A DNA stretch of 64,000 nt from Candidatus Staskawiczbacteria bacterium (lineage in GTDB: Bacteria > Patescibacteriota > Minisyncoccia > Minisyncoccales > Staskawiczbacteraceae): contig JBAZUH010000001.1 in NCBI GenBank assembly GCA_041661545.1, positions 608,148 to 672,147 on the forward strand, written 5' to 3'. The notes below the pieces were generated by a model. That model saw only the letters and a program-made list of their open reading frames with translations. It searched no databases and had not been told where the DNA came from. Position numbers and translations under genes: made by a program. Each line of letters begins with the position of its first letter. The stretch's first letter is position 1. Shown one piece after another: positions 3,828-59,374 of this stretch.

Positions 3828-3841
3828 TGTATTTTTATTAG

Positions 3842-4186
3842 TGGAGATGGCGGTTTTGAAACCGCGTCTGAAAAGTTTTTAAAAGCAATTCTACAAGTTT
3901 AGTTAGTTTTTATGTTCGAGCGTTAAATAAAGAACTAACAAAATTTTTAACGCCTTATCTCCTTAGTTTCAATAGTTTTTCGGAGAATCAAACTATCTAT
4001 CCTGATAATATAACACCTTTATTCACCTATCAGGAGTGGATGATAAAGATGCCGCATTAAGCGTATGCTAACGCAGGTTGCTTATTAAATAAATTAGCAA
4101 TTATGTTTTTTCCAAAATATTAGCGAGCTCTTGGAAAGCTCAACTTGCCTTACTTAAAAGAACTAGTCATCGAAACATTCATCCCC
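3842..4186 (-). ncRNA. ssrA: tmRNA (SsrA)
   Basis: The 5' GGGGATG pairs with the 3' CATCTCC+A, giving an acceptor stem with the G3-U70 alanine identity pair. The 3' end GACGCGGTTTCAAAACCGCCATCTCCA matches the tmRNA T-arm/acceptor consensus. An internal tag ORF GCT AAT TTA TTT AAT AAG CAA CCT GCG TTA GCA TAC GCT TAA (4098..4057) encodes ANLFNKQPALAYA*. The gene lies directly downstream of smpB. Confidence 0.85.
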
Positions 4187-22072: not shown

Positions 22073-23704
22073 ATGGAAAGAAGTAGATCAGAAAATATAA
22101 ATGTTGATACTGATAATGCTGCTGGCCAGGAGGCAGGAGATTATAAAGCCTTTGCTCGTGCGGCAAAAGAAGTTGGGATTGATAAAAATGAAAGAAAGGC
22201 CATGGCCAGAAATCCCGATAAAATTTTAGAAGGTGCAAGCGAGACTGTTAAAGACTACGTAACTCCAGAATCAATTGAGATGTTTTTTTCTGCCCTGCAA
22301 CGTAAAAATGTCGGAGGGAAAGAGAATCTAGAGAGACGTGGCATAAATGCTCGCAATAGGGCCGTGCTTGGTATTGGTAATTTTTTATATAACCTTCGTC
22401 CAGATGCTAAATTTAATAGTGTTGATATAGATGATTTAAATGAAAATGATTTACGTCTTATAGCCCTATCATGTAATTTGGTAGAAAATGCTTTTTATGA
22501 TGGAAAATTATCTGCTAATTTTGCTGAGGGCGAAGCTGCACCAATAGCTTTTGTAACAAATGTTTTAGCAAAGATTTTAGAGGGAGGAGATGCAGGCCAA
22601 AAATTTAAAGGTTTTGATAAGGCTAAAGCACATAGTTTTATCGCAAAAGTAAAAAAATTTGAAGAAAGTGTTTTGTTTTCAGATGTAAAAAGTGAAGATG
22701 CAACAGCTGAAAATGAAGATTCTGCCCGCGAAGAATCTATTGAAAGAGCAGATAAAGAAATAGACGCCTTACTCGCAAAAGCAGATGGAATAATGGACGA
22801 AACGGTTTGGGAAGAATATTTTGGCAACATTGCCGAAAAGCTTATTGATGCACCTCGATTGCTTAGACAGGCAGGGATGGATTTTTATGATTTTCAGGAG
22901 GAGGACATAAGAGAGATTGCAACCGCATTACAGAATTGGGGAACAATAACCGATAATATCAAAAGTAAGTCAGAGTTTGTTAGACAAAGAATAAGTACCG
23001 GAAAAGTAATTGATGACGGGCCACTTCCAGGAAAACTTTATGGGCTAGGATCTAGATACCAAAATCGTAGAATTGATCCAGCAAAACCATATGAGCCATA
23101 TTTAGATATTCAAAGATCAGCAGACGCTATAAGTGGTTGGGCTCTTGAGATTAAACAAAAATTCGAGGGTTCTAGAATTAAAGAAACAAATAAATATAAA
23201 TCTTTTAACGAAGCAGTAAAACTTGATAGTTTAAAGAAGTTGCCTGGCATAGCAGAAGCTTTGATGGCGGTTGTTGGTGAATTGCAAGGCCCTTTGCGTG
23301 AGTATGTAGAGTGTTATCAAAAAGCAATAGAAATTTCAAATAGAAGAATAGATGGAATTAAACAAGATGAAATTTTTATTAATGGTGAGCAGAGATTATT
23401 AGAGCAGTTAGAACAAAAGCGCTCAGCAGTTGCTTATTTAATTAAATCTTGTTTGATTGTTGATGATAGGATAAATAAACATTCAGAAGATTATCGTGCG
23501 AAAAAAGAAGCTGATTTGGTGAGGGGAGTGGGTCTTAGAGAAGGAATGTTCAATATAGATCTTAGGCAAGTTGTGAATGATGAAGTGCATGAATTTTCGG
23601 GTTATTTTGATAAACCTTTTGCTAAATTACATTTTAAACCCGATGATATACCATTTGCTGTTTGGGCGATAAGATATCTAAGGTCTCTTAATGAAAAAAA
23701 ATAG
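22073..23704 (+). CDS. Hypothetical 543-aa acidic protein, no recognisable domain
   Basis: A long intact ORF that starts 2 nt after the metG stop. It is somewhat more GC-rich than the flanking genes. Confidence 0.6.
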   Translation: MERSRSENINVDTDNAAGQEAGDYKAFARAAKEVGIDKNERKAMARNPDKILEGASETVKDYVTPESIEMFFSALQRKNVGGKENLERRGINARNRAVLGIGNFLYNLRPDAKFNSVDIDDLNENDLRLIALSCNLVENAFYDGKLSANFAEGEAAPIAFVTNVLAKILEGGDAGQKFKGFDKAKAHSFIAKVKKFEESVLFSDVKSEDATAENEDSAREESIERADKEIDALLAKADGIMDETVWEEYFGNIAEKLIDAPRLLRQAGMDFYDFQEEDIREIATALQNWGTITDNIKSKSEFVRQRISTGKVIDDGPLPGKLYGLGSRYQNRRIDPAKPYEPYLDIQRSADAISGWALEIKQKFEGSRIKETNKYKSFNEAVKLDSLKKLPGIAEALMAVVGELQGPLREYVECYQKAIEISNRRIDGIKQDEIFINGEQRLLEQLEQKRSAVAYLIKSCLIVDDRINKHSEDYRAKKEADLVRGVGLREGMFNIDLRQVVNDEVHEFSGYFDKPFAKLHFKPDDIPFAVWAIRYLRSLNEKK

Positions 23705-23706
23705 TC

Positions 23707-23726
23707 AGGTTAACCATGGTTAACCT
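23707..23726. repeat. Palindrome P1 (AGGTTAAC-CATG-GTTAACCT)
   Basis: A perfect 20-nt palindrome lying 11 nt upstream of the ATG of Cys-rich paralog 1. Confidence 0.9.
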
Positions 23727-23737
23727 AAGAATAAGCT

Positions 23738-25453
23738 ATGGAAGAAAAAAGTGAAATCAAGGCATGTCAGAATTGTAAGAGCGAGTTTGTAATAGAGCCC
23801 GATGATTTTGCTTTTTATGAGAAAATGAAAGTGCCTGCGCCAACCTTTTGCCCCGAGTGCAGAACAATCAGGCGTATGACTTGGCGAAATGAGCGTACAC
23901 TCTATAAAAGAAAGTGTGATGCAACTGGCAAAGACATCATTACAATGTTTTCGCCCGAACAACCACTTGTGGTTTACGAAAGAGATTATTGGTGGTCTGA
24001 TAAATGGGACCAGCTTGCCACGGGCCTAGATTATGATTTCTCGAAGTCATTTTTTGAGCAGTTTAAAGAACTATTTGAAAAAGCTCCTTTGCCCAATTTA
24101 GCTAATTCTAATTGCGTAGATTCTGAATATGGAAACCACAATGCGCATTTAAAAAATTGTTATTTAGTGTATGCATCTTATGAGGGAGAAGATTTGTCAT
24201 ATTGCTCAGGAGCGCATAATTGTAAGAATTCTTTTGATTTATATATAGCCGGTAATGATGTGCAATGTTATGAGATTGCTATGGGTGGAGGTTTAAACAA
24301 AGTTTTTTTCTCATATGATAGCGATGAAAGTGTGAGCAGTGCTTTTTTGCATGCCTGTAAAAATGTAATAGACTCTTTGGGTTGTATAAATCTTCGCAAT
24401 AAATCTAATTGTATTTTTAATGAGCAATACACAAAAGAAGAATATTTAAAAGAACGGGCTAAATATGATTTTGGAAGCTATAGAGCAATCAACGATTTTA
24501 AAAAAAAGTTTGCTGAATTTATAAAGCAATTCCCTCGACGTCATGGTTTTACTCATAGGTCACAAAATTGTATTGGAAATATTATTTTCAACTCTAAAAA
24601 TTTATACATGTGCTTTGATATATATGGTAGGGTGGAAGATAGTAAATATGCCATTCATGGATTGGATGGGCAAGATATTTACGATGCTTATGGGTTTGGA
24701 GGAAATGCTAATAATTCTTACGAAGTTGTAGATACGGGCATTGAAGCCACGCGCAATCTTTTTGCTGTTTTTACGCACGCTAGCCAAAACACAAATTACA
24801 CTTATGCATGTCAGAATTCTAAAGATTTATTTGGATGCGTGGGGCTTAGAAACAAACAATATTGTATTTTGAATAAACAATATACTAAAGAAGAATACGA
24901 AGAACTTGTGCCCAAAATAATCCAACACATGAATGATATGCCTTATACAGATAAAAAGGGCAGGGTGTATAAATATGGTGAATTTTTTCCAGCCGAGCTT
25001 TCTCCGTTTGCATATAACGAAACTATAGCCCAAGAATATTATACAAAAACAAAACAAGAAATTTTAGATATTGGTTATAATTGGAAAGAGCCAGATGTAA
25101 AACAATATAAAATTACTATACAGCCAGAAGATTTACCAGACCATATAAAAGATGTTAAAGATGATATTTTAAATCAGGTTGTAGGTTGTGCTCATAAGGG
25201 AGAATGCAATGAGCAGTGTATGGGAGCTTTTAAAATTATTCCTTCAGAGCTTCAATTTTATAGAACAATGAATTTGGCTTTGCCAAGGTTATGTTCTAAT
25301 TGCAGGCATTATAATAGATTGCGACAACGAACTCCATTTAAGTTGTGGGATAGAAAATGTGCCAAGTGTGCAAAAGAAATTAAAACCTCTTACGCCCCAG
25401 ACAGGCCAGAAATAATTTATTGCGAGCAGTGCTACAATGCCGAAGTAGCTTAG
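23738..25453 (+). CDS. Uncharacterised Cys-rich multi-zinc-ribbon protein, paralog 1
   Basis: 571 aa with 27 Cys by my count. The N-terminal module is CQNCK..F.IEPDDFAFYEKMKVPAPTFCPECR..RR. The motif FGC(V/I)(G/N)LRNK..CI(F/L)N.QYTKEEY occurs twice internally. The C-terminal module is LCSNCRHY..R...W.RKCAKC...SYAPDRPEIIYCEQCYNAEVA. Confidence 0.85.
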   Translation: MEEKSEIKACQNCKSEFVIEPDDFAFYEKMKVPAPTFCPECRTIRRMTWRNERTLYKRKCDATGKDIITMFSPEQPLVVYERDYWWSDKWDQLATGLDYDFSKSFFEQFKELFEKAPLPNLANSNCVDSEYGNHNAHLKNCYLVYASYEGEDLSYCSGAHNCKNSFDLYIAGNDVQCYEIAMGGGLNKVFFSYDSDESVSSAFLHACKNVIDSLGCINLRNKSNCIFNEQYTKEEYLKERAKYDFGSYRAINDFKKKFAEFIKQFPRRHGFTHRSQNCIGNIIFNSKNLYMCFDIYGRVEDSKYAIHGLDGQDIYDAYGFGGNANNSYEVVDTGIEATRNLFAVFTHASQNTNYTYACQNSKDLFGCVGLRNKQYCILNKQYTKEEYEELVPKIIQHMNDMPYTDKKGRVYKYGEFFPAELSPFAYNETIAQEYYTKTKQEILDIGYNWKEPDVKQYKITIQPEDLPDHIKDVKDDILNQVVGCAHKGECNEQCMGAFKIIPSELQFYRTMNLALPRLCSNCRHYNRLRQRTPFKLWDRKCAKCAKEIKTSYAPDRPEIIYCEQCYNAEVA

Positions 25454-25476: not shown

Positions 25477-25496
25477 AGGTTGCCCACGGGCAACCT
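25477..25496. repeat. Palindrome P2 (AGGTTGCC-CACG-GGCAACCT)
   Basis: 8-bp arms and a 4-nt centre, 21 nt upstream of paralog 2. It is an identical 20-mer to P3. Confidence 0.9.
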
Positions 25497-25517: not shown

Positions 25518-27227
25518 ATGGAATATAAATCAGAAAATAAAAATTGTCAGAATTGCAAAAAAGACTTTGAAATAGAGCCCGATGATTTTGCGTTTTATGA
25601 AAAAATGAAAGTACCAGCTCCAACATTTTGTTGGAAATGTAGGTTTCAAAGAAGGATGTCATATAGAAATGAGCGTAAGGCATTTTTTAATACCAGCTTA
25701 AAATCAGGTAAAAAAATCTTTTCTTTATATTCAAAGCAATCAAAAATTCCTATTTATAGCGATGACGAATGGCGCGAAGATGACTGGGATGCAATGCAAT
25801 ATGGTGTTGATTATGATTTTTCAAAACCATTTTTTGAGCAGTTTCATGATTTTTCCTTAACTGTGCCTCATTGGGGTACCTCGGGCGATATCGGCAATTT
25901 GAGATCAGAATTTATAGCTAATTCAGACTATGCCAAAGATTCATATCTTATATTTAATACAAGTCACATGGAGTCGAGTGCATATTGTAACGCATCTTTT
26001 CATTGCAGGGAAAGTTTTGATTCTACGAGTATAACCGATTGTGAGCGATCATATGAATTATTTTGGTCAATGAAATGTTATCGTACGTATTTTTCGTCTC
26101 AGTGTACTGACTGTACAAATGTTTTATTTTCAAAAAACTGTAAGGGGTGCGTAGATTGTTTTGGATGCGTTAATCTGCGCAACAAGTCACACCATATATT
26201 TAATGTTCCTTATTCTAAAGAAGAATATGAGGAAAAAGTGAAATCTTTCTTAATACATATGTTCAGCGGATGTACGGCCATTCAGAAAAAAGCTCATGAG
26301 TTTTGGCTTGGGTCTCCAGTAAAATATATGCAGGGTGTTAATAATGCAAATGTCTTAGGAGAATATATCTCTCATTCGCGCAATGTTTATATGGGGTATT
26401 TGGTTCAAGGGGGAGATAACCTTAGATATTGCCAGCATCAAACAGTTCCTGGGGCTAGTGATTCAATGGACATATCTGTTTGGGGGTCTCCAAATGAATT
26501 ATGTTATGAGAATACAACTTGTGGATATGGATGTTCTAATTCTAAATTTTGCGTAGAATGTTGGCCTGAAAATAGTAAACTGGAATACTGTATGTTTATG
26601 AAAAATTGTGCCGAATGTTTCGGGTGTTTCGGTTTGATTAACAAAAAATATTGTATATTTAATAAGCAATATAGTAAAGAAGATTATCAAAATATCGTTG
26701 AAAGAATAAAAAATCAAATGAATGAAATGCCTTATGTTGATAAAAAGGGCAGAGTGTATAAATATGGCGAGTTTTTTCCTATAGAATTGTCTCCATTTGA
26801 ATATAATACTTCTGTGGTAAACGAATATTTTCCTTTAACGCGAGAACAAGCCATAGAAGAAGGATATAGTTGGGATGATACGGCAAAAACAGAATACGAA
26901 GTTAACATAAGCGCAAATGAATTACCCGATTCAATAAAAGACGTTGAGGATGATATTATTTTAAAGCTAATCGCCTGCACTAATTGTAAAAGAGCGTATC
27001 GCATTATAAAACCCGAATTAGATTTTTTAAGGAAGGAAGGATTGCCGTTGCCAAGGTTGTGCGTTGATTGTCGATATGCAGAGAGAATTTCGCAGAGAAA
27101 TCAGGCTTTTTTATTTCATCGTCATTGTATGAAAGAAGGTTGCACTAATGAATTTGAAACATCTTACGCCCCAGACAGACCAGAAATAATTTATTGCGAG
27201 GCATGCTACAATCAAGAAGTCGCATAA
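25518..27227 (+). CDS. Uncharacterised Cys-rich multi-zinc-ribbon protein, paralog 2
   Basis: 569 aa with the same N-terminal, internal and C-terminal motifs as paralog 1. Confidence 0.85.
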   Translation: MEYKSENKNCQNCKKDFEIEPDDFAFYEKMKVPAPTFCWKCRFQRRMSYRNERKAFFNTSLKSGKKIFSLYSKQSKIPIYSDDEWREDDWDAMQYGVDYDFSKPFFEQFHDFSLTVPHWGTSGDIGNLRSEFIANSDYAKDSYLIFNTSHMESSAYCNASFHCRESFDSTSITDCERSYELFWSMKCYRTYFSSQCTDCTNVLFSKNCKGCVDCFGCVNLRNKSHHIFNVPYSKEEYEEKVKSFLIHMFSGCTAIQKKAHEFWLGSPVKYMQGVNNANVLGEYISHSRNVYMGYLVQGGDNLRYCQHQTVPGASDSMDISVWGSPNELCYENTTCGYGCSNSKFCVECWPENSKLEYCMFMKNCAECFGCFGLINKKYCIFNKQYSKEDYQNIVERIKNQMNEMPYVDKKGRVYKYGEFFPIELSPFEYNTSVVNEYFPLTREQAIEEGYSWDDTAKTEYEVNISANELPDSIKDVEDDIILKLIACTNCKRAYRIIKPELDFLRKEGLPLPRLCVDCRYAERISQRNQAFLFHRHCMKEGCTNEFETSYAPDRPEIIYCEACYNQEVA

Positions 27228-27232
27228 AAAAT

Positions 27233-28939
27233 ATGAATCAAGAATCTGAAAAAAAAATATGTCAGAACTGTAAGCAGGACTTTATTATAGAGCCCGATGA
27301 TTTTGCGTTTTATGAAAAAATGAAGGTGCCCACACCAACCTTTTGCCCCGAGTGCCGGTATATTCGGCGGCTTTTAGATAGAAATGAATATAATTTTTAT
27401 AAACGCAAATGTGACGCAACAGGAGAAAATATTATTTCTATTTATCGCCCAGAGGCGCCGTTTCCAGTTTATAAGCAGGAATATTGGAAGTCGGATGCTT
27501 TTGACGCCACTTCTTATGGCCGTGATTTTGATTTTTCAAAATCATTTTTTGAACAATATGAAGAGCTCCGCCGTGCAGTGCCACATTTAGCGCTTGTAAA
27601 TTCTAACAGCCCAAACAGTGAATATACAAATCAATCTGAAGACAATAAAGATTGTTATATGCTTGTCACTAGTGGCTCAAATGAAAAATGTATGTATGGA
27701 AGTTGGAATCAATCAAAATGTTTTTTTTGCTCTGATTGCTATATGATTGAGCAATGTGAATTTTGCTATGAATCAATTAATTTAACCAAATGTTCTCAAT
27801 GCGCCTTTGCATATGATTGTGCTGATTGTGTAAATGTCTATTTTTCTAAAAATTGTCGAGGTTGTATAAATTGTTTTGGATGCGTGGGTTTAAGAAATAA
27901 GCAGTATTGTTGGTTTAACCAACAATTAAGCAAAGAAGATTACAGTGAAAAAGTTAAACAATTTGGTTGGACTCGCGAGAGAATAAAAAGTGCTCAAAAA
28001 GATTTGGCAGAATTGCAAAACAACTTGCCAGTGAAATATTATCATGGGTCTAAAATTCAAAATTCCACTGGAGACTATTTAGAAAATACTCAGAGGGCAA
28101 GAGTAGCATTTAATTGTCGAGAAAATAAGGACACCTCATATATGCAGGACGCGTGGAACCAAACCGAAGACTGCCGTGATTGCACAGAAATTATTATTGG
28201 CGAGCTGGCATATGAAATTCAAGGAGTTGAAACACCTCATCGGACAATTGTGGCGCGAAGTTGTTTCGGAAGCATCATTGATTCTGCTTATTGCGATATG
28301 TGTTTTGGAGTTAGAAATTGTTTTGGCTGTTTTGGATTAAAGCAAAAAGAATATTGTATTTTAAATAAGCAATATACCAAAAGCGATTATTTAGAATTAA
28401 AAGAGAAGATTATAAGCTACACGAGAAAAACAGGTGAGTGGGGAGAATATTTTCCATCCAATGTTTCGCCGTTTTCTTATAACGAATCAATGGCACAGGA
28501 TTATTTTCCTTTAACAAAAGAAGAAGCTCTCAAAAAAGGTTATTCTTGGTACGATAAACCAGAAACTAATTATTCTATTACGTTAACATCTGATAAATTA
28601 CCAGCAACTATTAACGACACTCAAGATGAAATTGTAAAAGAAATTATTAAATGTAAAACGCAGGAGAATGACAAAGAAAAAAATGATAATCCTCTTTGCG
28701 TGGGAGCCTTTAAATTGACACCGCTCGAATTGATGCTTTATCGTAAACTAAATATTCCTGTACCAGAGTATTGTTTTCCTTGTCGCCGAACAAAACGCTT
28801 TATGTTGCGCAATCCTCGAAGATTATGGCACCGTCATTGTATGAAAGAAGGTTGCACTAATGAATTTGAAACTTCTTATGCTCCAGATAGACCCGAGATA
28901 GTATATTGCGAACAGTGTTACAATGCCGAGGTGGCATAA
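27233..28939 (+). CDS. Uncharacterised Cys-rich multi-zinc-ribbon protein, paralog 3
   Basis: The ATG at 27233 (MNQESEKKICQNCKQDF...) aligns with the other copies. The ORF-track start at 27194 overlaps paralog 2. Confidence 0.85.
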   Translation: MNQESEKKICQNCKQDFIIEPDDFAFYEKMKVPTPTFCPECRYIRRLLDRNEYNFYKRKCDATGENIISIYRPEAPFPVYKQEYWKSDAFDATSYGRDFDFSKSFFEQYEELRRAVPHLALVNSNSPNSEYTNQSEDNKDCYMLVTSGSNEKCMYGSWNQSKCFFCSDCYMIEQCEFCYESINLTKCSQCAFAYDCADCVNVYFSKNCRGCINCFGCVGLRNKQYCWFNQQLSKEDYSEKVKQFGWTRERIKSAQKDLAELQNNLPVKYYHGSKIQNSTGDYLENTQRARVAFNCRENKDTSYMQDAWNQTEDCRDCTEIIIGELAYEIQGVETPHRTIVARSCFGSIIDSAYCDMCFGVRNCFGCFGLKQKEYCILNKQYTKSDYLELKEKIISYTRKTGEWGEYFPSNVSPFSYNESMAQDYFPLTKEEALKKGYSWYDKPETNYSITLTSDKLPATINDTQDEIVKEIIKCKTQENDKEKNDNPLCVGAFKLTPLELMLYRKLNIPVPEYCFPCRRTKRFMLRNPRRLWHRHCMKEGCTNEFETSYAPDRPEIVYCEQCYNAEVA

Positions 28940-28945
28940 AATGTC

Positions 28946-28965
28946 AGGTTGCCCACGGGCAACCT
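28946..28965. repeat. Palindrome P3 (AGGTTGCC-CACG-GGCAACCT)
   Basis: It lies between the paralog 3 stop and the tatD ATG, 9 nt upstream of the latter. Confidence 0.9.
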
Positions 28966-34547: not shown

Positions 34548-35292
34548 AAAAGTTATTATAGCTGTTGCGGGGCAAGGAACCCGTATGCAGGAACTGACAA
34601 AAGATAAATCAAAACATTTGATTGAAGTAAATGGTAAGCCATTTTTGTTTTATGTTTTAGATAATTTGACTAAAGCAGGCTATGATGATTTTACTCTAGT
34701 GGTGGGCTTTGAAGCAGAATTAATTAAAAAGTTTGTGGATGATTACGGTTTTAAAGTAAAGATTATCAATCAGTTTGAAATTTTAGGACCTAAAGAAAAA
34801 ATTTATGGAACCGCTTGCCCTTTAATGTGTGTAGAGAATACTCAAGAGTCATTTTTATATATTTCTGGTGATAATTTTTACTCGGTAGAAGATTTGAAAC
34901 AAGCTAATATTGATGACGAATTTAACTATATTTTTGGCGCAGAAAGTATGCATCCGGAAGACTTTGGGGTTTTGGTGCCCTTCGACTTGGCTCAGGGCAG
35001 GCCCGGCGGTGAATTTTTGAAAGAAATTGTTGAAAAACCTAGGTTGCCCATGGGCAACCTGATTAATGTAAGTTTGTATAAGTTTACGCCAGAAATTTTT
35101 AAAAAAATATCTCAAATAGAAAAATCATCTCGCGGAGAGTACGAAATTACAGATGCGGTTTCTTTATTGGCTCAAGAAAAAAAGGTTAAGATAAAAAAAA
35201 TGAAGGGCTTTTGGATAGACTTTGGTAGGCCTGAAGATGTTAAAAAACTAGAAGATTTTCTAAATGGAAATAATAAAGAAGAACAAAAATAA
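34540..35292 (+). CDS. Sugar-1-phosphate nucleotidyltransferase
   Basis: AVAGQGTRMQELTKDKSKHLIEVNGKP and EKP..P..NLIN..LYKF. Confidence 0.75.
   Translation: MVKKVIIAVAGQGTRMQELTKDKSKHLIEVNGKPFLFYVLDNLTKAGYDDFTLVVGFEAELIKKFVDDYGFKVKIINQFEILGPKEKIYGTACPLMCVENTQESFLYISGDNFYSVEDLKQANIDDEFNYIFGAESMHPEDFGVLVPFDLAQGRPGGEFLKEIVEKPRLPMGNLINVSLYKFTPEIFKKISQIEKSSRGEYEITDAVSLLAQEKKVKIKKMKGFWIDFGRPEDVKKLEDFLNGNNKEEQK
34976..35011. repeat. GC-rich mini-element, in frame (copy I4)
   Basis: gtgcccttcgacttggctcagggcaggcccggcggtg encodes VPFDLAQGRPGG. Its first 23 nt match the ybeY copy at 21 of 23 positions. Confidence 0.75.
35041..35060. repeat. Palindrome P4 (AGGTTGCC-CATG-GGCAACCT) inside a CDS
   Basis: A perfect 20-nt palindrome with the same arms as P2 and P3. 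It encodes RLPMGNL of the nucleotidyltransferase. Confidence 0.9.
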
Positions 35293-39023: not shown

Positions 39024-39106
39024 TGCCGGAGGAGGGACTTGAACCCTCAAGATCTTTCGATCGCGGGATTTTGAGTCCCGTGCGTTTGCCATTTCACCAC
39101 TCCGGC
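39024..39106 (-). tRNA. tRNA-Leu (anticodon CAA), class II with long variable arm
   Basis: A hand-folded cloverleaf. Acceptor GCCGGAG/CTCCGGC+A, anticodon stem CGGGA/TCCCG with loop CTCAAAA, variable arm GATC-gaaa-GATC, and T-arm GAGGG-TTCAAGT-CCCTC. CCA is not encoded. Confidence 0.9.
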
Positions 39107-53546: not shown

Positions 53547-55718
53547 ATGTCAGAAGAAACAAAAAAAATGGAAAATCATATAGAAAAAGTTCGTAAAAGA
53601 GATGGTAGGGTAGTTGATTTTGAGCAAGAAAAAATTGCTGAAGCTGTTCACAAAGCTGTGGTTGCAACAAATCAGGGAAATGGCCCAGAATCTAAAAGGG
53701 TTTCTGATAAAGTTGTTGTATTAATGAATCGCAGGTTTAAAAAGGAAGAAATTCCAACTATTGAGCAAATTCAAAATATTGTTGAGGAAGCCTTAATGCT
53801 AGAAGGATTAGTTGAAACTGCCAAAGCATATGTTTTATATAGAGAGCAAAGAAGATCAATACGTGAAGCTACAAAAGCAACTGATGATTCTTCAGAAAAA
53901 GTAGATAGTTATCTAAAAGAAATTGATTGGCAAGTAAAAGAAAATGCCAACATGACTTTTTCTTTGCAAGGATTAAACCAATATGTTGGTTCATATATTT
54001 CAAAAAAATATTGGTTAAATAAAATTTATCCAAAAGAAATAAGAGACGCAGCATTAAGTGAAGACTTTCATATTCACAATTTAGAATTATTAGCTCCTTA
54101 TTGCGCCGGATGGGATTTGTATGACTTTTTAGTAAAAGGCTTTGGCGGTGTTTCTGGAAAAATAGAGTGTAGGGCTCCTAAACATTTTAGGACCGCATTA
54201 GGTCAATTGGTGAATGTTTTATTTACTTTACAAGGAGAAACAGCTGGAGCAAACGCTGTTTCTAATTTTGATACTCTTTTAGCTCCATTTATTAGATATG
54301 ACAAGCTAGATTATAAGCAAGTAAAACAATCTATGCAGGAATTTTTATATAACTGTATGGTGCCAACTAGGGTAGGCTTTCAAACGCCATTTTTAAATGT
54401 TTCTTTAGATATTAAAGCGCCATCATTTTTGGCAAAACAGCCTGTAATTATTGGAGGAGAGCCACAAAACGAAACTTATGGAGACTTTCAACCAGAAATG
54501 GATATGTTTATCAGGGCTTTTTATGAAGGCTTAATGGAGGGTGATGCCTCGGGCAGGCCATTTACATTTCCAATTCCAACAGTTTCGATTACTAAAGATT
54601 TTGAGTGGGATAATCCAAATTTAAATGCAATGTGGGAAGCAACAGCAAAATATGGGATTAATTATTTTTCAAACTTTATTCAGTCTGATATGAGTCCAGA
54701 TGATGCAAGATCAATGTGTTGCAGATTGAGGCTTGATAACAGAGAGTTATATAAAAGAGGCGGGGGATTGTTTGGTTCTTCTCCTAAAACAGGTTCAATT
54801 GGAGTGGTCACAATTAATTTGCCAAGAATTGGATATACTTCAAAAACAAAAACAGAGTTTTTTGAAAAATTAACAAGATTAATGGAGTTAGCTAAAGAAA
54901 GTTTAGAAATTAAGAGAAAGGCTTTAGATGACTTTATGGAAAAAGGACTTTACCCATATTCAAGGCATTATTTAGAAGAAATGAAAAAAATGAGAAATAC
55001 TTATTTTGGAAATCATTTTTCTACAATTGGAATTATGGGCATGAATGAAGCTTTGATGAACTTTTTGGAAGAAGATATTACAACTCCTAAAGGAAAAAAG
55101 TTTGCACTTGAAGTTTTAGATTTCATGAGAGATAAAATGATTCAATTTCAAGAAGAAACCGGCAATTTGTTTAATTTAGAAGCAACCCCAGGAGAAGGAA
55201 CAAGTTATAGGCAAGCAAGAACAGATAGAGAAAAATATCCAGATATTGTTACTTCTGGAACAAAAGAAGTTCCTTATTATACAAACTCAAGCCAATTGCC
55301 CGTAGGTTTTACAGATGATATTTTTGAAGCCCTAGATTTGCAAAATGATTTGCAAACAAAATATACTGGCGGAACTGTATTACATATATTTTTAGGAGAA
55401 AAAGTTTCTGACCCAAATATGGCAAAAGCTTTGGTTAAGAAGATTTGTGAAAATTATAGCTTGCCATATATTACACTAACTCCAACATTTTCAATTTGCC
55501 CAACACATGGATATATTTCTGGAGAACACTTTGAATGCCCTCAATGTACTATAAAACAACCCTGTGAGGTGTATAGTAGGGTTGTGGGGTACATTAGGCC
55601 TGTTCAGCAATGGCACAAAGGTAAAAAGCAAGAGTTTGAAGAAAGAAAAGAATTTGCCTTTCCCGAAGAAAAAACCAATGGAGTTCTGACAAAAATGGAA
55701 GAAAAAACAGCCGTATAA
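53547..55718 (+). CDS. nrdD: Anaerobic ribonucleoside-triphosphate reductase (class III)
   Basis: N-terminal ATP-cone VRKRDGRVVDFEQEKI, C-terminal zinc site CPTHG...CPQC, and glycyl-radical motif RVVGYIRPV. Confidence 0.93.
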   Translation: MSEETKKMENHIEKVRKRDGRVVDFEQEKIAEAVHKAVVATNQGNGPESKRVSDKVVVLMNRRFKKEEIPTIEQIQNIVEEALMLEGLVETAKAYVLYREQRRSIREATKATDDSSEKVDSYLKEIDWQVKENANMTFSLQGLNQYVGSYISKKYWLNKIYPKEIRDAALSEDFHIHNLELLAPYCAGWDLYDFLVKGFGGVSGKIECRAPKHFRTALGQLVNVLFTLQGETAGANAVSNFDTLLAPFIRYDKLDYKQVKQSMQEFLYNCMVPTRVGFQTPFLNVSLDIKAPSFLAKQPVIIGGEPQNETYGDFQPEMDMFIRAFYEGLMEGDASGRPFTFPIPTVSITKDFEWDNPNLNAMWEATAKYGINYFSNFIQSDMSPDDARSMCCRLRLDNRELYKRGGGLFGSSPKTGSIGVVTINLPRIGYTSKTKTEFFEKLTRLMELAKESLEIKRKALDDFMEKGLYPYSRHYLEEMKKMRNTYFGNHFSTIGIMGMNEALMNFLEEDITTPKGKKFALEVLDFMRDKMIQFQEETGNLFNLEATPGEGTSYRQARTDREKYPDIVTSGTKEVPYYTNSSQLPVGFTDDIFEALDLQNDLQTKYTGGTVLHIFLGEKVSDPNMAKALVKKICENYSLPYITLTPTFSICPTHGYISGEHFECPQCTIKQPCEVYSRVVGYIRPVQQWHKGKKQEFEERKEFAFPEEKTNGVLTKMEEKTAV

Positions 55719-55721
55719 TTT

Positions 55722-55752
55722 AAAAGCCGCCTTTTAACTAAGGCGGTTTTTT
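55722..55752 (+). terminator. Intrinsic terminator after nrdD
   Basis: AAAAGCCGCCTT-ttaact-AAGGCGGTTTTTT. Confidence 0.75.
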
Positions 55753-55779
55753 AGTATAATCAAACTGTGATAGTCTTTC

Positions 55780-55803
55780 TCAGGTTACCATACGGTAACC
55801 TGA
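55780..55803. repeat. Palindrome P5 (TCAGGTTACC-ATAC-GGTAACCTGA)
   Basis: 10-bp arms. It lies between the nrdD terminator and the methyltransferase gene. Confidence 0.9.
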
Positions 55804-55843
55804 CAGTAGGCGTGACATGAGAAGTATAAGTAAAAAATAAAAA

Positions 55844-56611
55844 ATGAATTATATACAAAAAGTAAAACAGGACAGCATTGATGAATTTAGCTCGGAAGTA
55901 ACTCGCGAAAGGTATAAAAGAGATGCAAATGCGGGATTTTGGGAGAGCGAGGAAAATTTAATTAAAAAATATTTTACATTAAATTCAAAAATACTTGATA
56001 TAGGGTGTGGCTCTGGGAGGACGACTTTTCCTATGTTTAAAATGGGCTATTCGGTGGTAGGCGTTGATATAACACCCATGATGATTGATATTGCTAAAGA
56101 AAATGCAAAAGCTCAAAAGTTGGATATTAAATTTCTTGGAGGTGACGCAACCAGTTTAGATTTTGAAGACAATATTTTTGATGGTGCTATTTTTGCAAAT
56201 AATGGCTGGGCGCAAATTCCGGGTAAACAACAACGACAGAAGGCTTTAAATGAAATCTACAGGGTTCTAAAGCCTGGTGGAATTTATATTTTTACTGCTC
56301 ACAAAAGATATTATTCATTAAATAATTTCCTATTTTGGTTAAGTAAAAGAATCTTTAAGGATGGTGCAATAGACTTTGGCGATGTGTTTTTTAGAAGATA
56401 TGCTGAAGGTAAAAAGTTAAAGCAAAAACAGTTTTTACACCTTTCTAGCGTGAATGAAGTAAAACAACAAATTTCCAAGGCTGGATTTCACTTGGTGGAT
56501 TTTAAAAGGATGGGGGAATTGTCAAAAAAAGATGCTGAATCAAGAAGAGCGTCTTTGTGGAACGGGTTTGATTCGTTCAAATCTCCAATTTTTTATGTTT
56601 GTAAAAAATAG
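55844..56611 (+). CDS. Class I SAM-dependent methyltransferase
   Basis: ILDIGCGSGRTTFPM motif I and LKPGGIYIF. I saw no (D/N)PP(Y/F) DNA-methylase motif. Confidence 0.8.
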   Translation: MNYIQKVKQDSIDEFSSEVTRERYKRDANAGFWESEENLIKKYFTLNSKILDIGCGSGRTTFPMFKMGYSVVGVDITPMMIDIAKENAKAQKLDIKFLGGDATSLDFEDNIFDGAIFANNGWAQIPGKQQRQKALNEIYRVLKPGGIYIFTAHKRYYSLNNFLFWLSKRIFKDGAIDFGDVFFRRYAEGKKLKQKQFLHLSSVNEVKQQISKAGFHLVDFKRMGELSKKDAESRRASLWNGFDSFKSPIFYVCKK

Positions 56612-56653
56612 TTTAAAGGGGTTTTTTATTTCAAAACTATAGTAGATTTTGTT

Positions 56654-56673
56654 AGGTTACCGTATGGTAACCT
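56654..56673. repeat. Palindrome P6 (AGGTTACC-GTAT-GGTAACCT)
   Basis: It is the exact reverse complement of the P5 20-mer core. It lies 8 nt upstream of the HTH gene ATG. Confidence 0.9.
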
Positions 56674-56681
56674 GAAATAAA

Positions 56682-56873
56682 ATGTCAAAGATAATAATAG
56701 AAAAAGATTTTTATACAACAATCGAAATGGCTAAAGAGTCGGGCATTAGCAAGGTGTCTGTGCTTAAACGAATTTGGCGGGGGAATATAAAAGCTCTCAA
56801 AATGGGTAGAAATTTTATAATCTTTAAAAAGGATGTTAACATAAAAAAGTTGATTTTAGATATTCAAAAATAG
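56682..56873 (+). CDS. Excisionase-family/MerR-like helix-turn-helix DNA-binding protein
   Basis: 63 aa. YTTIEMAKESGISKVSVLKRIWRGNIKALKMGRNFIIFKKD matches the excisionase-type HTH pattern. Confidence 0.65.
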   Translation: MSKIIIEKDFYTTIEMAKESGISKVSVLKRIWRGNIKALKMGRNFIIFKKDVNIKKLILDIQK

Positions 56874-56890
56874 AAAGCATCAAAAACAAC

Positions 56891-56914
56891 TCAGGTTACC
56901 ATATGGTAACCTGA
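56891..56914. repeat. Palindrome P7 (TCAGGTTACC-ATAT-GGTAACCTGA)
   Basis: A perfect 24-nt palindrome upstream of paralog 4. Confidence 0.9.
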
Positions 56915-56932
56915 AGTAATTATAAAAAAACT

Positions 56933-58654
56933 ATGGAGCAAGAAGTAAAATCATGCCAGAATTGCAAGCAAGACTTTGTAATAGAGCCCGATGATTTTGC
57001 GTTCTATGAAAAAATGAAGGTTCCCGCACCTACATGGTGCCCGGAATGTCGAATGCAGCGTCGTTTCGCATGGAGAAATGAGTGGAGGTTATTTAGAAAA
57101 AAAGATATTAATGGAAAAGAAATTTTTTCTAATTATCATGAAGATTCTCCTGTAAAAGTGTTAGATACGGCAGAGTGGTATGCTGATAATTGGGATGCTA
57201 TGGAATATGGCAGAGATTATGATTTCTCAAAACCGTTTTTTGAACAATTTCGAGAATTATTTAACCAAGTGCCATTAATGTCTAGATCACTTACTAACCC
57301 AGTAAGAAGCGATTATTGTATGAATGCTACTGATCCAAAAGATTGCTATCTTACTTTTGCTGTTTCATATGTAGAAAACTCAGCATATTCTATTTGGGGA
57401 GCTAAATCTAAAGATATTTTTGATTGTTATATGTTTAATGATTCAGAGCTTTGTTATGACTCGGTTAATATTACCAAATGTTATAAAGCATTATATTCTG
57501 TAGATTGCGAAGATTGCAATGATATAATATTCTGTAAAAATTGTGTGGGCTGTAATAATTGTTTTGGTTGCGTTAATTTAAAAAATAAATCTTATTATAT
57601 TTTTAATGAACCTTATTCTAAAGAAAAATATACAGAAAAAATTAAAGAACTTGGCATAAGTTCTAGAAAAAATATTGACGAATTATGCAGTAAAGCGGTT
57701 GCTTTTTGGATTAAGTATCCTAATAAATTTATGCATGGCAGGCACAATGCTAATGTAATGGGAGATTATATAAGTAATTCAAAAAATGCTCAACATTGTT
57801 GGAGAATTATTGATGCTGAAAATGTTAAGTACTGTAGTAATGCTACTATTGGTCCGATGAAAGATTCTTATGATTATAGCGGTTTTGGTGAGGGGGCCGA
57901 ATTAATTTATGATTCAATTATTACTGGTATTGGAACGTATAATGTAATGTTTTCTTCGCAGTGCTATTCGTCGGTATCTAACCTTAGGTATTGTTTCTTT
58001 TGTTTGCAAAACTCATCTAATTTGTTTGGTTGTGTAAGTTTGCGCAATAAACAATATTGTATTTTAAATAAACAATATACAAAAGATGAGTACGAAGCCC
58101 TGGTCCCTAAAATTATCCAGCATATGAATGATATGCCTTATATAGACAAAAAGGGGAGAATTTATAAATATGGAGAATTTTTTCCTACAGAAATGAGTCC
58201 CATTGCTTATAATCAATCATTTGCTAATGATTTTTTTCCTCTTACAGAACAAGAGGTGGCAGATCAAGGTTTTGATTGGCAGGAGCAAAAGAGTAAAGAA
58301 TTTAATATCACAAAACCAGCGCTGAATCTGCCAGATGATATTACTAATGTTGACGAAAGTATTATGAAAGAAGTTATTGGTTGTGCTCACGAAGGTAAAT
58401 GCACTCATGAATGTGCAGGTGTTTTTAAAATTACTAAACAAGAATTACAATTCTATAAACTACTTAATATTCCTTTGCCACAAATTTGTCAGAATTGTAG
58501 GCATTACGCGCGATTTACCTGGCGTAACCCAGTTAAACTTTGGCATAGGCATTGCATGAAACCCGGCTGCACCAATGAGTTTGAAACCAGTTATGCCCCC
58601 GATAGGCCAGAGATTGTGTATTGTGAAAGTTGTTACAATAACGAAGTGGCTTAA
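56933..58654 (+). CDS. Uncharacterised Cys-rich multi-zinc-ribbon protein, paralog 4
   Basis: 573 aa with the same N-terminal (CQNCKQDFVIEPDDFAFYEKMKVPAPTWCPECR), internal and C-terminal (HRHCMKPGCTNEFETSYAPDRPEIVYCESCYNNEVA) motifs. Confidence 0.85.
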   Translation: MEQEVKSCQNCKQDFVIEPDDFAFYEKMKVPAPTWCPECRMQRRFAWRNEWRLFRKKDINGKEIFSNYHEDSPVKVLDTAEWYADNWDAMEYGRDYDFSKPFFEQFRELFNQVPLMSRSLTNPVRSDYCMNATDPKDCYLTFAVSYVENSAYSIWGAKSKDIFDCYMFNDSELCYDSVNITKCYKALYSVDCEDCNDIIFCKNCVGCNNCFGCVNLKNKSYYIFNEPYSKEKYTEKIKELGISSRKNIDELCSKAVAFWIKYPNKFMHGRHNANVMGDYISNSKNAQHCWRIIDAENVKYCSNATIGPMKDSYDYSGFGEGAELIYDSIITGIGTYNVMFSSQCYSSVSNLRYCFFCLQNSSNLFGCVSLRNKQYCILNKQYTKDEYEALVPKIIQHMNDMPYIDKKGRIYKYGEFFPTEMSPIAYNQSFANDFFPLTEQEVADQGFDWQEQKSKEFNITKPALNLPDDITNVDESIMKEVIGCAHEGKCTHECAGVFKITKQELQFYKLLNIPLPQICQNCRHYARFTWRNPVKLWHRHCMKPGCTNEFETSYAPDRPEIVYCESCYNNEVA

Positions 58655-58669
58655 ATAAATATTAAAAAT

Positions 58670-59374
58670 ATGATTATAGCGGGGTTGCAAAAAACAACAT
58701 TAATAGACTTTCCGGGCAAAATAGCTTGTGTGGTTTTTTTGGCTGGGTGTAATTTTAGGTGCCCGTGGTGTTATTCTGCAGAATTGGTGTTGCCTTTAAA
58801 AATTGCCAAACAACCCAGAATGCAAGAAGAAGAATTTTTTAATTTTTTAAAACAAAGGCAGGAGCAATTAGATGGGGTTGTAATTTGCGGGGGAGAGCCA
58901 ACTATAAATAAAGATTTGCCTCGTTTTATAGAAAAAATAAAACACCTAGGATTTTTAGTGAAGCTAGATACGAATGGCTCTAACCCCACAATGTTAAAAA
59001 ATTTAGTTGAGGCAAGGTTAATTGATTATGTGGCAATGGATATAAAAACATCAGAAGATAACCCTGCTTACAAAAATTTAATGATAGAGGGAATAACAAT
59101 GAACCATATTAAAGAAAGCGTAGAATTTTTAAAACTTGGAAAAGTTGATTGGGAGTTTCGTACAACAGTTGTAGATACAATTCATGATAAAGAGGATTTA
59201 ATGAAAATTGCTAAATGGATAGGCGGGCCCAATGTTAACTATTATTTGCAAAATTTTAGAGCTGAAAAAACAATTGACCCAGAATTTGAAAAAATAGAAC
59301 CATTTAAAGAAGAATTTTTAGAAAATATAGTTAAAGAAATTTCTCCTTATTTTAAAGATTGTAAACTTAGATAG
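58670..59374 (+). CDS. nrdG: Anaerobic ribonucleotide reductase activating protein (radical SAM)
   Basis: CNFRCPWCY (CxxxCxxC) and GGEPT. Confidence 0.85.
   Translation: MIIAGLQKTTLIDFPGKIACVVFLAGCNFRCPWCYSAELVLPLKIAKQPRMQEEEFFNFLKQRQEQLDGVVICGGEPTINKDLPRFIEKIKHLGFLVKLDTNGSNPTMLKNLVEARLIDYVAMDIKTSEDNPAYKNLMIEGITMNHIKESVEFLKLGKVDWEFRTTVVDTIHDKEDLMKIAKWIGGPNVNYYLQNFRAEKTIDPEFEKIEPFKEEFLENIVKEISPYFKDCKLR

Follow-up and report, generated by a model that had tools for sequence, protein, structure and literature searches.

What does a bacterium with a genome of roughly 0.74 Mb do with four distant copies of one Cys-rich protein of about 570 amino acids (aa)? The question is raised by a 64,000-nt stretch of Candidatus Staskawiczbacteria DNA (assembly GCA_041661545.1, contig JBAZUH010000001.1, positions 608,148 to 672,147), called the window below. 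A preliminary description of this stretch had reported a Cys-rich family with four copies. All four, designated here p1 to p4, are indeed present, and the segment 23738-25453 on which it had focused is exactly one open reading frame (ORF) of 571 aa. A domain architecture that is well supported, within the limits of structure prediction, could be derived for these proteins: zinc-binding-type modules at both ends, with two beta-solenoid repeats and a connector between them. As to their role, our best guess, held with low confidence, is that of scaffolds or adaptors working with orphan ATPases. The four genes are:

p1, 23738..25453, plus strand: ORF of 571 aa; NCBI WC711_03460, 100% identical database protein P0001
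p2, 25518..27227, plus strand: ORF of 569 aa, 34 Cys
p3, 27233..28939, plus strand: 568 aa, 38 Cys; NCBI WC711_03470, 100% identical
p4, 56933..58654, plus strand: 573 aa, 33 Cys; unlinked to the p1-p3 array

Pairwise identity among p1-p4 is 42-48%, with 27-38 Cys per paralog and a whole-protein isoelectric point of 5.6-6.0. Together the four genes occupy ~0.9% of the genome, and GC content is uniform along the region (0.28-0.38). Only 5 nt separate the p2 stop codon from the start of p3, which was placed at ATG 27233 instead of the TTG 27194 of the ORF list because the 568-aa NCBI protein is 100% identical. Family proteins carry no N-terminal signal sequence or hydrophobic N-terminus, the zinc module already beginning at residue 10, and are presumably cytoplasmic since such a signal is lacking.

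Predicted architecture of the Cys-rich proteins

Structure was predicted with AlphaFold2 for p1 on a family alignment of 76 sequences, obtained from homolog searches and filtered to <70% identity. The model is of high confidence (mean predicted local distance difference test, pLDDT, 93.1; predicted template-modelling score, pTM, 0.90) and divides the protein as follows:

residues 1-85, 23738..23992, plus strand: N-terminal module; predicted treble-clef Cys4 site C10, C13, C38, C41; second half degenerate
residues 96-245, 24023..24472, plus strand: repeat 1; helix, predicted beta-solenoid with 12-residue coils, cap FGC..LRNK..C.FN..Y.KEEY
residues 246-400, 24473..24937, plus strand: repeat 2, like repeat 1; ends in LFGCVGLRNKQYCILNKQYTKEEY
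residues 401-478, 24938..25171, plus strand: connector, mixed alpha/beta in the model
residues 479-571, 25172..25450, plus strand: C-terminal module; two predicted treble-clef Cys4 sites

The preliminary description had proposed homologous zinc-ribbon modules at the two ends, quoting motif strings that we recovered in the alignment of the four paralogs. Their homology stands. The N and C modules of the family alignment were matched by hhalign over residues 6-80 (75 columns) with a probability of 99.05% and E 1.9e-18, and comparison of the whole protein with itself paired residues 5-80 with 479-561 (probability 97.6-97.8%). Their type had to be revised. In the p1 model, C10 and C13 form a knuckle between strands 6-9 and 16-19, and C38 and C41 lie at the start of helix 39-47. 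The C-terminal module has a first site composed of C484, C494, C519 and C522, with C519/C522 at the start of helix 520-528, and a second composed of C541, C544, C562 and C565, with the exact spacing CxxC-x17-CxxC. The three terminal Cys4 sites are alike: two short strands are joined by a turn that holds the first pair, and a helix begins at the second. In the usual classification, a knuckle combined with a helix N-terminus is a treble clef, while both pairs of a classical zinc ribbon come from beta-hairpin knuckles, which none of the three sites displays. The structure prediction suggested as a check thus returned Cys4 modules, and the position of the second Cys pair makes them predicted treble clefs and not classical zinc ribbons.

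The twelve terminal Cys are invariant or almost so in the family: C10, C13 and C38 are invariant, C41 is conserved at 97%, and the eight Cys of the C-terminal module at 99-100%, the four of its second site reaching 100%. The second half of the N-terminal module is devoid of ligands, C60 being a Cys in only 33% of members with no CxxC after it. This module has lost its second metal site.

Two known but poorly characterised types of zinc finger resemble these modules. The Pfam domain zf_Tbcl (PF13451) bears the name 'probable treble clef domain' and occurs in bacterial 'zinc-ribbon domain' proteins of small size; it, too, combines a knuckle and a helix N-terminus. It matched p1 residues 9-46 with 17.3 bits and E 0.0046, the gathering threshold of 24 bits not being reached. 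Matches at E <0.01 occurred in 7 of the 76 family members (best 1.4e-4), and one p3 ortholog carries a precomputed PF13451 match. The pattern CxxC-x3-F-x-I/F-x3-(D/E)-x2-FY...P-x-P-x2-C-x2-CR-x2-RR is common to zf_Tbcl proteins and the family, and the arrangement of PF13451, with its knuckle in a beta-hairpin and its second pair at a helix N-terminus, is reproduced in the p1 model. In contrast to those small proteins, the domain here caps both ends of a 570-aa protein and is present twice. At the other end, residues 539-568 of p1 were matched below cut-off by zf_Tbcl_2 (PF23477; E 0.0013, 18.8 bits against 27) and by TIGR04272 (E 0.0095, 15.7 bits against 36), and this type of domain was found at E <0.01 in 9 of the 76 members (best 1.5e-5). 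Predicted viral 'putative zinc-ribbon domain' proteins of BFVD superpose on the modules with a probability of 1.0 and a root-mean-square deviation (rmsd) of 1.3 A over 42 columns.

Representatives of the CxxC-x17-CxxC domain, small proteins of Methanosarcina, bind zinc as measured by inductively coupled plasma mass spectrometry (PMC12704099). The exact C541-x2-C544-x17-C562-x2-C565 spacing of p1 is that of the small zinc-binding proteins of Methanosarcina mazei. These archaeal proteins are free-standing and of ~40-60 aa, whereas p1 is a multidomain protein with three Cys4 sites, of which the finger comes last. By analogy with such relatives and from the predicted geometry, we infer that the terminal Cys4 sites of p1 would bind zinc.

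One family member obtained in the search of representatives (P0356, 731 aa) carries an N-terminal GNAT acetyltransferase domain, either through a true fusion or through a merged gene call. It lacks several of the terminal zinc ligands (CEIS...CPEE and CPDE...), so that the fold may also occur in a version with a reduced number of metal sites, or none.

The two internal repeats proposed in the preliminary description, units of ~140 residues, were detected by hhalign, residues 107-243 aligning with 256-394 over 135 columns (probability 99.8%, E 5.6e-29). Both contain the landmarks ED..Y, D, YE, F...C and FGC..L.NK..C.(F/L)N..Y.KEEY. The resulting order A-B-B'-X-A' (end modules A, repeats B, connector X) implies two separate duplications. 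Of the ancient end-to-end duplication suggested initially, the homology of the ends is retained, and the single simple event is not.

Cys-spaced segments reminiscent of a solenoid had also been noted, in agreement with the model. Strands of repeat 1 (178-181, 190-193, 202-205, 214-217) are spaced by 12 residues, and those of repeat 2 (350-356, 362-365, 374-377) recur about every 12 residues. The same period is found in the Cys columns of the family: 141/153/165/177, 162/174/186/198/210, 343/355/367 and 346/358. The model predicts that the central units are two narrow beta-solenoids with 12 residues per coil and Cys/Ser ladders in the core. The Cys triads C207/C216/C225 and C358/C367/C376 are conserved. 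In the p1 orthogroup, most ladder positions are occupied by Ser, Asp, Leu or Val, and because of these substitutions the ladder Cys seem to serve as small residues of the core and not to be required as metal ligands.

Searches of the PDB gave no solved relative. With the 4-sequence and 76-sequence profiles, only chance matches were obtained (E >=0.7). Foldseek aligned the whole p1 model only with left-handed beta-helices (template-modelling, TM, scores <0.1), and a single repeat, repeat 2, folded alone (pLDDT 86) had a best E of 5e-3 and no TM-score >0.31, its matches again being generic proteins of the left-handed beta-helix type. GlmU, LpxD and gamma-carbonic anhydrase are similar in their stacked short strands and small-residue ladders, and Foldseek does see solenoid-like local structure. 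They differ in that the E values were >=4e-4 with no real superposition, that the hexapeptide motif is absent here and that the coil is of 12, not 18, residues. Membership in the left-handed beta-helix or hexapeptide transferase group was rejected on these grounds (no Hexapep Pfam match, period of 12, TM 0.05-0.31, rmsd 9-20 A). With its regularly spaced Cys, the 12-residue coil is reminiscent of the antifreeze protein of the beetle Tenebrio molitor, a Cys-rich beta-helix that also has 12 residues per coil. Antifreeze helices filled with disulfides are secreted, whereas the family proteins are without a signal peptide. Judging from the model, solenoids of the present kind, with 12-residue coils and Cys/Ser ladders, may constitute a new type.

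The connector has no Pfam match. Conservation in the family reaches its maximum here, at MPYxDKKGRVYKYGEFFPxExSPFxYN (entropy of 0.91 bits at 401-420, the lowest value). No Pfam or NCBIfam model covers the family core, and literature searches retrieved no report on this protein family. Taken together, the end domains are of known zinc-finger types, and the core solenoid and the overall architecture are without a described relative. A role as DNA mimic or in nucleic-acid binding was also considered from charge and rejected, the domain charges being unremarkable.

Conservation along the proteins and age of the paralogs

The family was initially described as having conserved termini around a variable core. 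Column entropy in the family alignment does vary along the protein, and divergence is non-uniform as had been anticipated. It is lowest at 21-40, 361-380, 401-420 and 541-571 and low also at 201-240; the highest values are found at 241-260, 121-200, 321-360 and 441-460. The terminal stretches 21-40 and 541-571 are conserved as claimed, but the core is not uniformly variable, since 361-380, 401-420 and 201-240 are equally conserved.

The termini had also been said to be conserved even at the nucleotide level, a claim that mostly failed. The proportion of synonymous differences (pS) between paralogs amounts to 0.69-0.75 overall, and no 30-codon window, at the termini or elsewhere, falls outside 0.56-0.86. 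Codons for shared amino acids are identical in 52-57% of cases overall; by region, the share is 53-59% in the core, 47-64% over the first 60 columns and 36-62% at the C-terminal end. The longest pairwise runs of identical codons were not significant after multiple testing (p 0.04-0.47), which is explained by the strong codon bias of a 33% GC genome.

A weak outlier is the 20-mer that the preliminary description had singled out as identical in all four genes:

20-mer ATAGAGCCCGATGATTTTGC, 23792..23811, plus strand: codons I-E-P-D-D-F-A; other copies at 25572, 27287 and 56981

Each gene contains it once, which makes four occurrences where shuffled sequences give an expectation of 0, and it corresponds to a four-way run of 7 identical codons, a modest outlier (p = 0.017) that includes the minor codons ATA (40%), GAG (25%) and CCC (14%). 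In related loci it was found in 0 of 80. The residues at this N-terminal motif are lineage-specific, the four copies of the window reading EPDDFAFY and four copies in another Staskawiczbacteria locus (L001) EPEDFEFY. When, across all loci, pairs of paralogs within and between genomes were matched for core identity, the N module was 0.547 vs 0.540 and 0.657 vs 0.628 identical (p = 0.08), and no difference was observed for the C module (p = 0.48). Gene conversion or concerted evolution was rejected by the codon-identity, run and within- versus between-genome tests. As judged from these comparisons of sequences, there is no general concerted evolution; at the 20-mer, a short local conversion tract in this lineage, or co-evolution with a shared partner, may be at work. 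The conservation of ends, caps and connector reflects purifying selection on metal sites and fold elements, and not gene conversion or diversifying selection.

Neither diversifying selection nor modular exchange, both put forward in the preliminary description, finds support in the orthologs of p1, p2 and p3, to which our searches were devoted. Those of p1 are 70-81% identical in other Staskawiczbacteria and 57-63% in Nomura-, Lipton- and Paceibacteria; those of p2 are 71-83% identical, and those of p3 59-79%, including Nomurabacteria, Minisyncoccia and Kaiserbacteria. Since each of the three has orthologs across Patescibacteria orders, the paralogs predate much of the radiation. Between p1 and three orthologs, the proportion of nonsynonymous differences (pN) was 0.125-0.155 and pS 0.68-0.72, giving omega ~0.07-0.08 with synonymous divergence (dS) near saturation. 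A profile in windows gave none with pN > pS, the highest pN being 0.28 against a pS of 0.66. That the paralogs are ancient and conservatively evolving is well supported by these sequence comparisons. It follows that small genomes pay to keep several distinct versions of these old and strongly constrained proteins.

VirD4/TraD-like ATPases next to the arrays and a proposed role of the family

The family is very large. Among 8,000 scored candidates 7,993 passed E 1e-3, so that it includes at least 7,993 clusters at 90% identity. At 50% identity there are at least 4,921 representatives, 2,141 of them scoring below 1e-30, and GTDB species genomes contain at least 569 relatives (569 of the first 600 pattern matches), almost all in Patescibacteria. 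From this distribution the family appears to be restricted to Patescibacteria. Contigs carrying it were also seen in metagenome-assembled genomes labelled Burkholderiales, Bacteroidales, Gammaproteobacteria or Babeliales (L024, L027, L075; P0006/P0211); these are probably mis-binned, given the otherwise Patescibacteria-only distribution. No relatives were found on IMG/VR viral contigs, and p1, p2 and p4 matched no PADLOC defence model. We examined 80 related loci, 81 counting the window. Copies per locus range from 1 to 7, and same-strand tandem arrays of 2-7 copies occur in 50 of the 81 loci. The 154 full-length genes of the sampled loci fall into 84 clusters at 55% identity.

Clustering of the flanking ORFs revealed one dominant neighbour, an ATPase resembling type IV coupling proteins (T4CPs), in 30 of the 80 loci; of its 43 genes, 41 are co-oriented. 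The distance to a family gene on the same strand is at most 100 bp in 20 loci, and of the loci having >=3 kb on both sides, 30 in number, 11 contain the ATPase. These are P-loop ATPases matching TrwB_AAD_bind, T4SS-DNA_transf, TraG-D_C and DUF87/HerA. They score far below the NCBIfam TraD/VirD4 cut-offs, and PADLOC returned only generic HerA/mad8 P-loop models. No hydrophobic segment was found in 38 of 41, and the Walker A motif, at residues 35-65, leaves no space for the canonical membrane anchor of a coupling protein.

Two forms of the ATPase can be distinguished. The short form (~485-505 aa) has no finger, tail or DLGIEF motif, whereas the long form (~630-830 aa) carries a CxxC-x17-CxxC finger (E 4e-13) followed by a disordered tail, with DLGIEF ~31 residues past the finger in 11 of 15 long-form tails. 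Both forms are present in 12 loci, including L001 and L074 of Staskawiczbacteria, typically in the order long ATPase, array, short ATPase. ATPase pairs flank the arrays in L001, L002, L010, L014, L069, L073, L074 and others, for example at L069:2099-4231 and L069:7758-9224.

Patescibacteria have been reported to encode ~2 VirD4-like T4CPs per genome, only 148 of 5,713 being near virB4, and these were described as 'possibly exapted' (Quinonero-Coronel et al. 2025, PMC12102498). The neighbour ATPases fit this description of abundant T4CP homologues located away from virB4. The likeness concerns the ATPases and not the family itself, and those described here are without a transmembrane anchor. 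Taking ~2 such genes per ~800-gene genome, the adjacency of arrays and ATPases would be well over ten-fold above chance. The link between the family and these ATPases appears not to have been reported before.

Because they flank the arrays in related genomes and because the long form carries the same finger, the ATPases are the most likely partners of the family. We tentatively favour, at somewhat less than even chances, the view that p1-p4, ancient paralogs built as zinc-capped double solenoids, have no enzymatic activity and serve VirD4/TraD-like ATPases that lack a transmembrane domain as scaffolds or adaptors. In such a scheme, the terminal zinc modules would offer a docking surface common to all paralogs, the divergent faces of the solenoids would give each paralog its own specificity, and the partners would be soluble hexameric ATPases.

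Several observations weigh against this. There is no such ATPase within the 64-kb window, and only about a third of the related loci have one. The other contexts are ordinary, with polyamine, ribosomal and aminoacyl-tRNA synthetase genes or dnaK/dnaJ. The zinc-finger matches of p1 in Pfam and NCBIfam are all below the curated cut-offs. Finally, E151/Y155, D167 and Y178 and their counterparts are invariant in both repeats and could equally mark an active site.

In a further-reaching version, which we regard as unlikely, the abundant orphan VirD4-like ATPases of Patescibacteria would have their missing partner in this family. Arrays together with long and short ATPases would make up a cytoplasmic machine that is driven by ATP, confined to the candidate phyla radiation (CPR) and not described before, assembled through CxxC-x17-CxxC fingers and with each paralog presenting a different substrate or target. 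A domain architecture is now defined for a family without a core model or a solved relative, and the genomic tie to VirD4-like ATPases provides a concrete, testable hypothesis for two unexplained gene sets of a major bacterial branch.

The abundance of Cys could instead point to metalloenzymes or metal/redox proteins, in which stacked CxxC pairs and triads would bind further metals or Fe-S clusters and the E, D and Y residues would form the active site. In its favour are the 27-38 Cys per protein, the CxxC pairs every 12 residues, the CxxCxxCxxC that most members show at 207-216, the E, D, Y, N and K positions that are invariant and shared by the two repeats, and the fusion of one member to a GNAT acetyltransferase. 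However, it is the best-conserved subgroup, the p1 orthogroup, that has replaced most ladder Cys, one homolog is without even the terminal ligands, and no enzyme-family match was found in Pfam, NCBIfam or the PDB. We hold this reading to be quite unlikely.

We consider it improbable to the same extent that the paralogs join into a hetero-oligomer of structural function, for instance a cage or a filament like that of bactofilins, held together by head-to-tail pairing of the N and C zinc modules of adjacent subunits. End-to-end polymerisation is common among beta-solenoids, bactofilins being an example, and the homology of the two end modules and the presence, side by side, of several ancient non-redundant paralogs of tightly conserved length would suit such a structure. 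Yet the model of the monomer is compact and confident (pTM 0.90), a locus may carry anything from 1 to 7 copies, and no Pfam bactofilin match was obtained.

The vicinity of T4CP-like ATPases also brings to mind secreted substrates or effectors recruited by VirD4-like ATPases for delivery to the host of the episymbiont, the conserved termini serving as recognition signals and the variable core as effector part. Conserved ends around a variable middle do resemble polymorphic effectors, and the type IV secretion system (T4SS) of Patescibacteria is essential to epibiotic growth (PMC12857230). But the ATPases are without the canonical T4CP membrane anchor and such ATPases are almost never near virB4 (PMC12102498), ortholog identities of 60-80% across orders and omega ~0.07 are unlike effectors, and the proteins would need to unfold a rigid solenoid and at least three structural zinc sites before export. 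This role is, in our opinion, more doubtful still.

Least credible, and indeed very improbable, is a system of the contingency or surface-variation type with termini held alike by gene conversion and cores diversifying fast: the 20-mer with its minor codons, the genome-specific N-motif residues and the differing array composition among genomes speak for it, but synonymous sites are saturated in the termini too, codon identity is equal in termini and core, matched pairs within and between genomes are alike, p1, p2 and p3 have stable orthologs under low omega, and the proteins have no signal peptide.

Flanking genes and upstream palindromes

The gene p4 is preceded by nrdD (53547-55718) and a class I methyltransferase gene (55844-56611) and followed by an nrdG-like radical-SAM activase gene (58670-59374), so that the usual nrdD-nrdG pairing is broken up by p4 in 53547-59374 of the window. 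A functional tie of p4 to nrdD/nrdG was rejected, the pairing not being recurrent in other loci. A 63-aa ORF (56682-56873, plus strand) between a hairpin and p4 has a weak match to HTH_17 (excisionase-type helix-turn-helix, HTH; 21 bits against a cut-off of 27) and could encode a small DNA-binding regulator upstream of p4.

Directly upstream of p1, a 543-aa ORF (22073-23704, plus strand) encodes an acidic, probably helical protein and stands where the Staskawiczbacteria loci L001 and L074 carry the long T4CP-like ATPase. It has no Pfam, NCBIfam or PADLOC match and no homolog in the 80 related loci as searched with jackhmmer, and was on this basis rejected as a conserved partner of p1.

In Nomurabacteria (L081/L082, 10001-11716), a p1-type gene is located in a polyamine cluster, between a saccharopine-dehydrogenase-like gene and an Orn/DAP/Arg decarboxylase gene; dnaK-dnaJ lies upstream, and genes for a CN-hydrolase and an agmatine deiminase follow downstream.

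Perfect 20-bp palindromes of the form AGGTT-N10-AACCT are found seven times in the window against 0.5 expected:

AGGTT-N10-AACCT palindromes: 23707-23726, 25477-25496, 28946-28965, 35041-35060, 55782-55801, 56654-56673, 56893-56912

Their inner stems vary with compensation (AACC/GGTT, GCCC/GGGC, ACCA/TGGT, ACCG/CGGT). They cluster around family genes in the window, and six of the seven lie 8-42 nt upstream of the starts of p1, p2, tatD, the methyltransferase gene, the small HTH ORF and p4. Since most have an upstream A-run and no downstream T-run, they look like minus-strand terminators; every gene in the region is on the plus strand. A family-linked regulatory role of this hairpin was rejected, a single instance being found in the 80 related loci (L022). 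Upstream hairpins in general were not enriched before family genes (14/163 vs 27/541, p = 0.09). At gathering thresholds, Rfam detected in the window only a tmRNA (3839-4186, minus strand) and one tRNA (39024-39106, minus strand), and no known RNA family overlaps the paralogs or the hairpins. In locus L001, three family genes are preceded by a repeated hairpin particular to that locus, TTTCACGTGGCGTGAAA.

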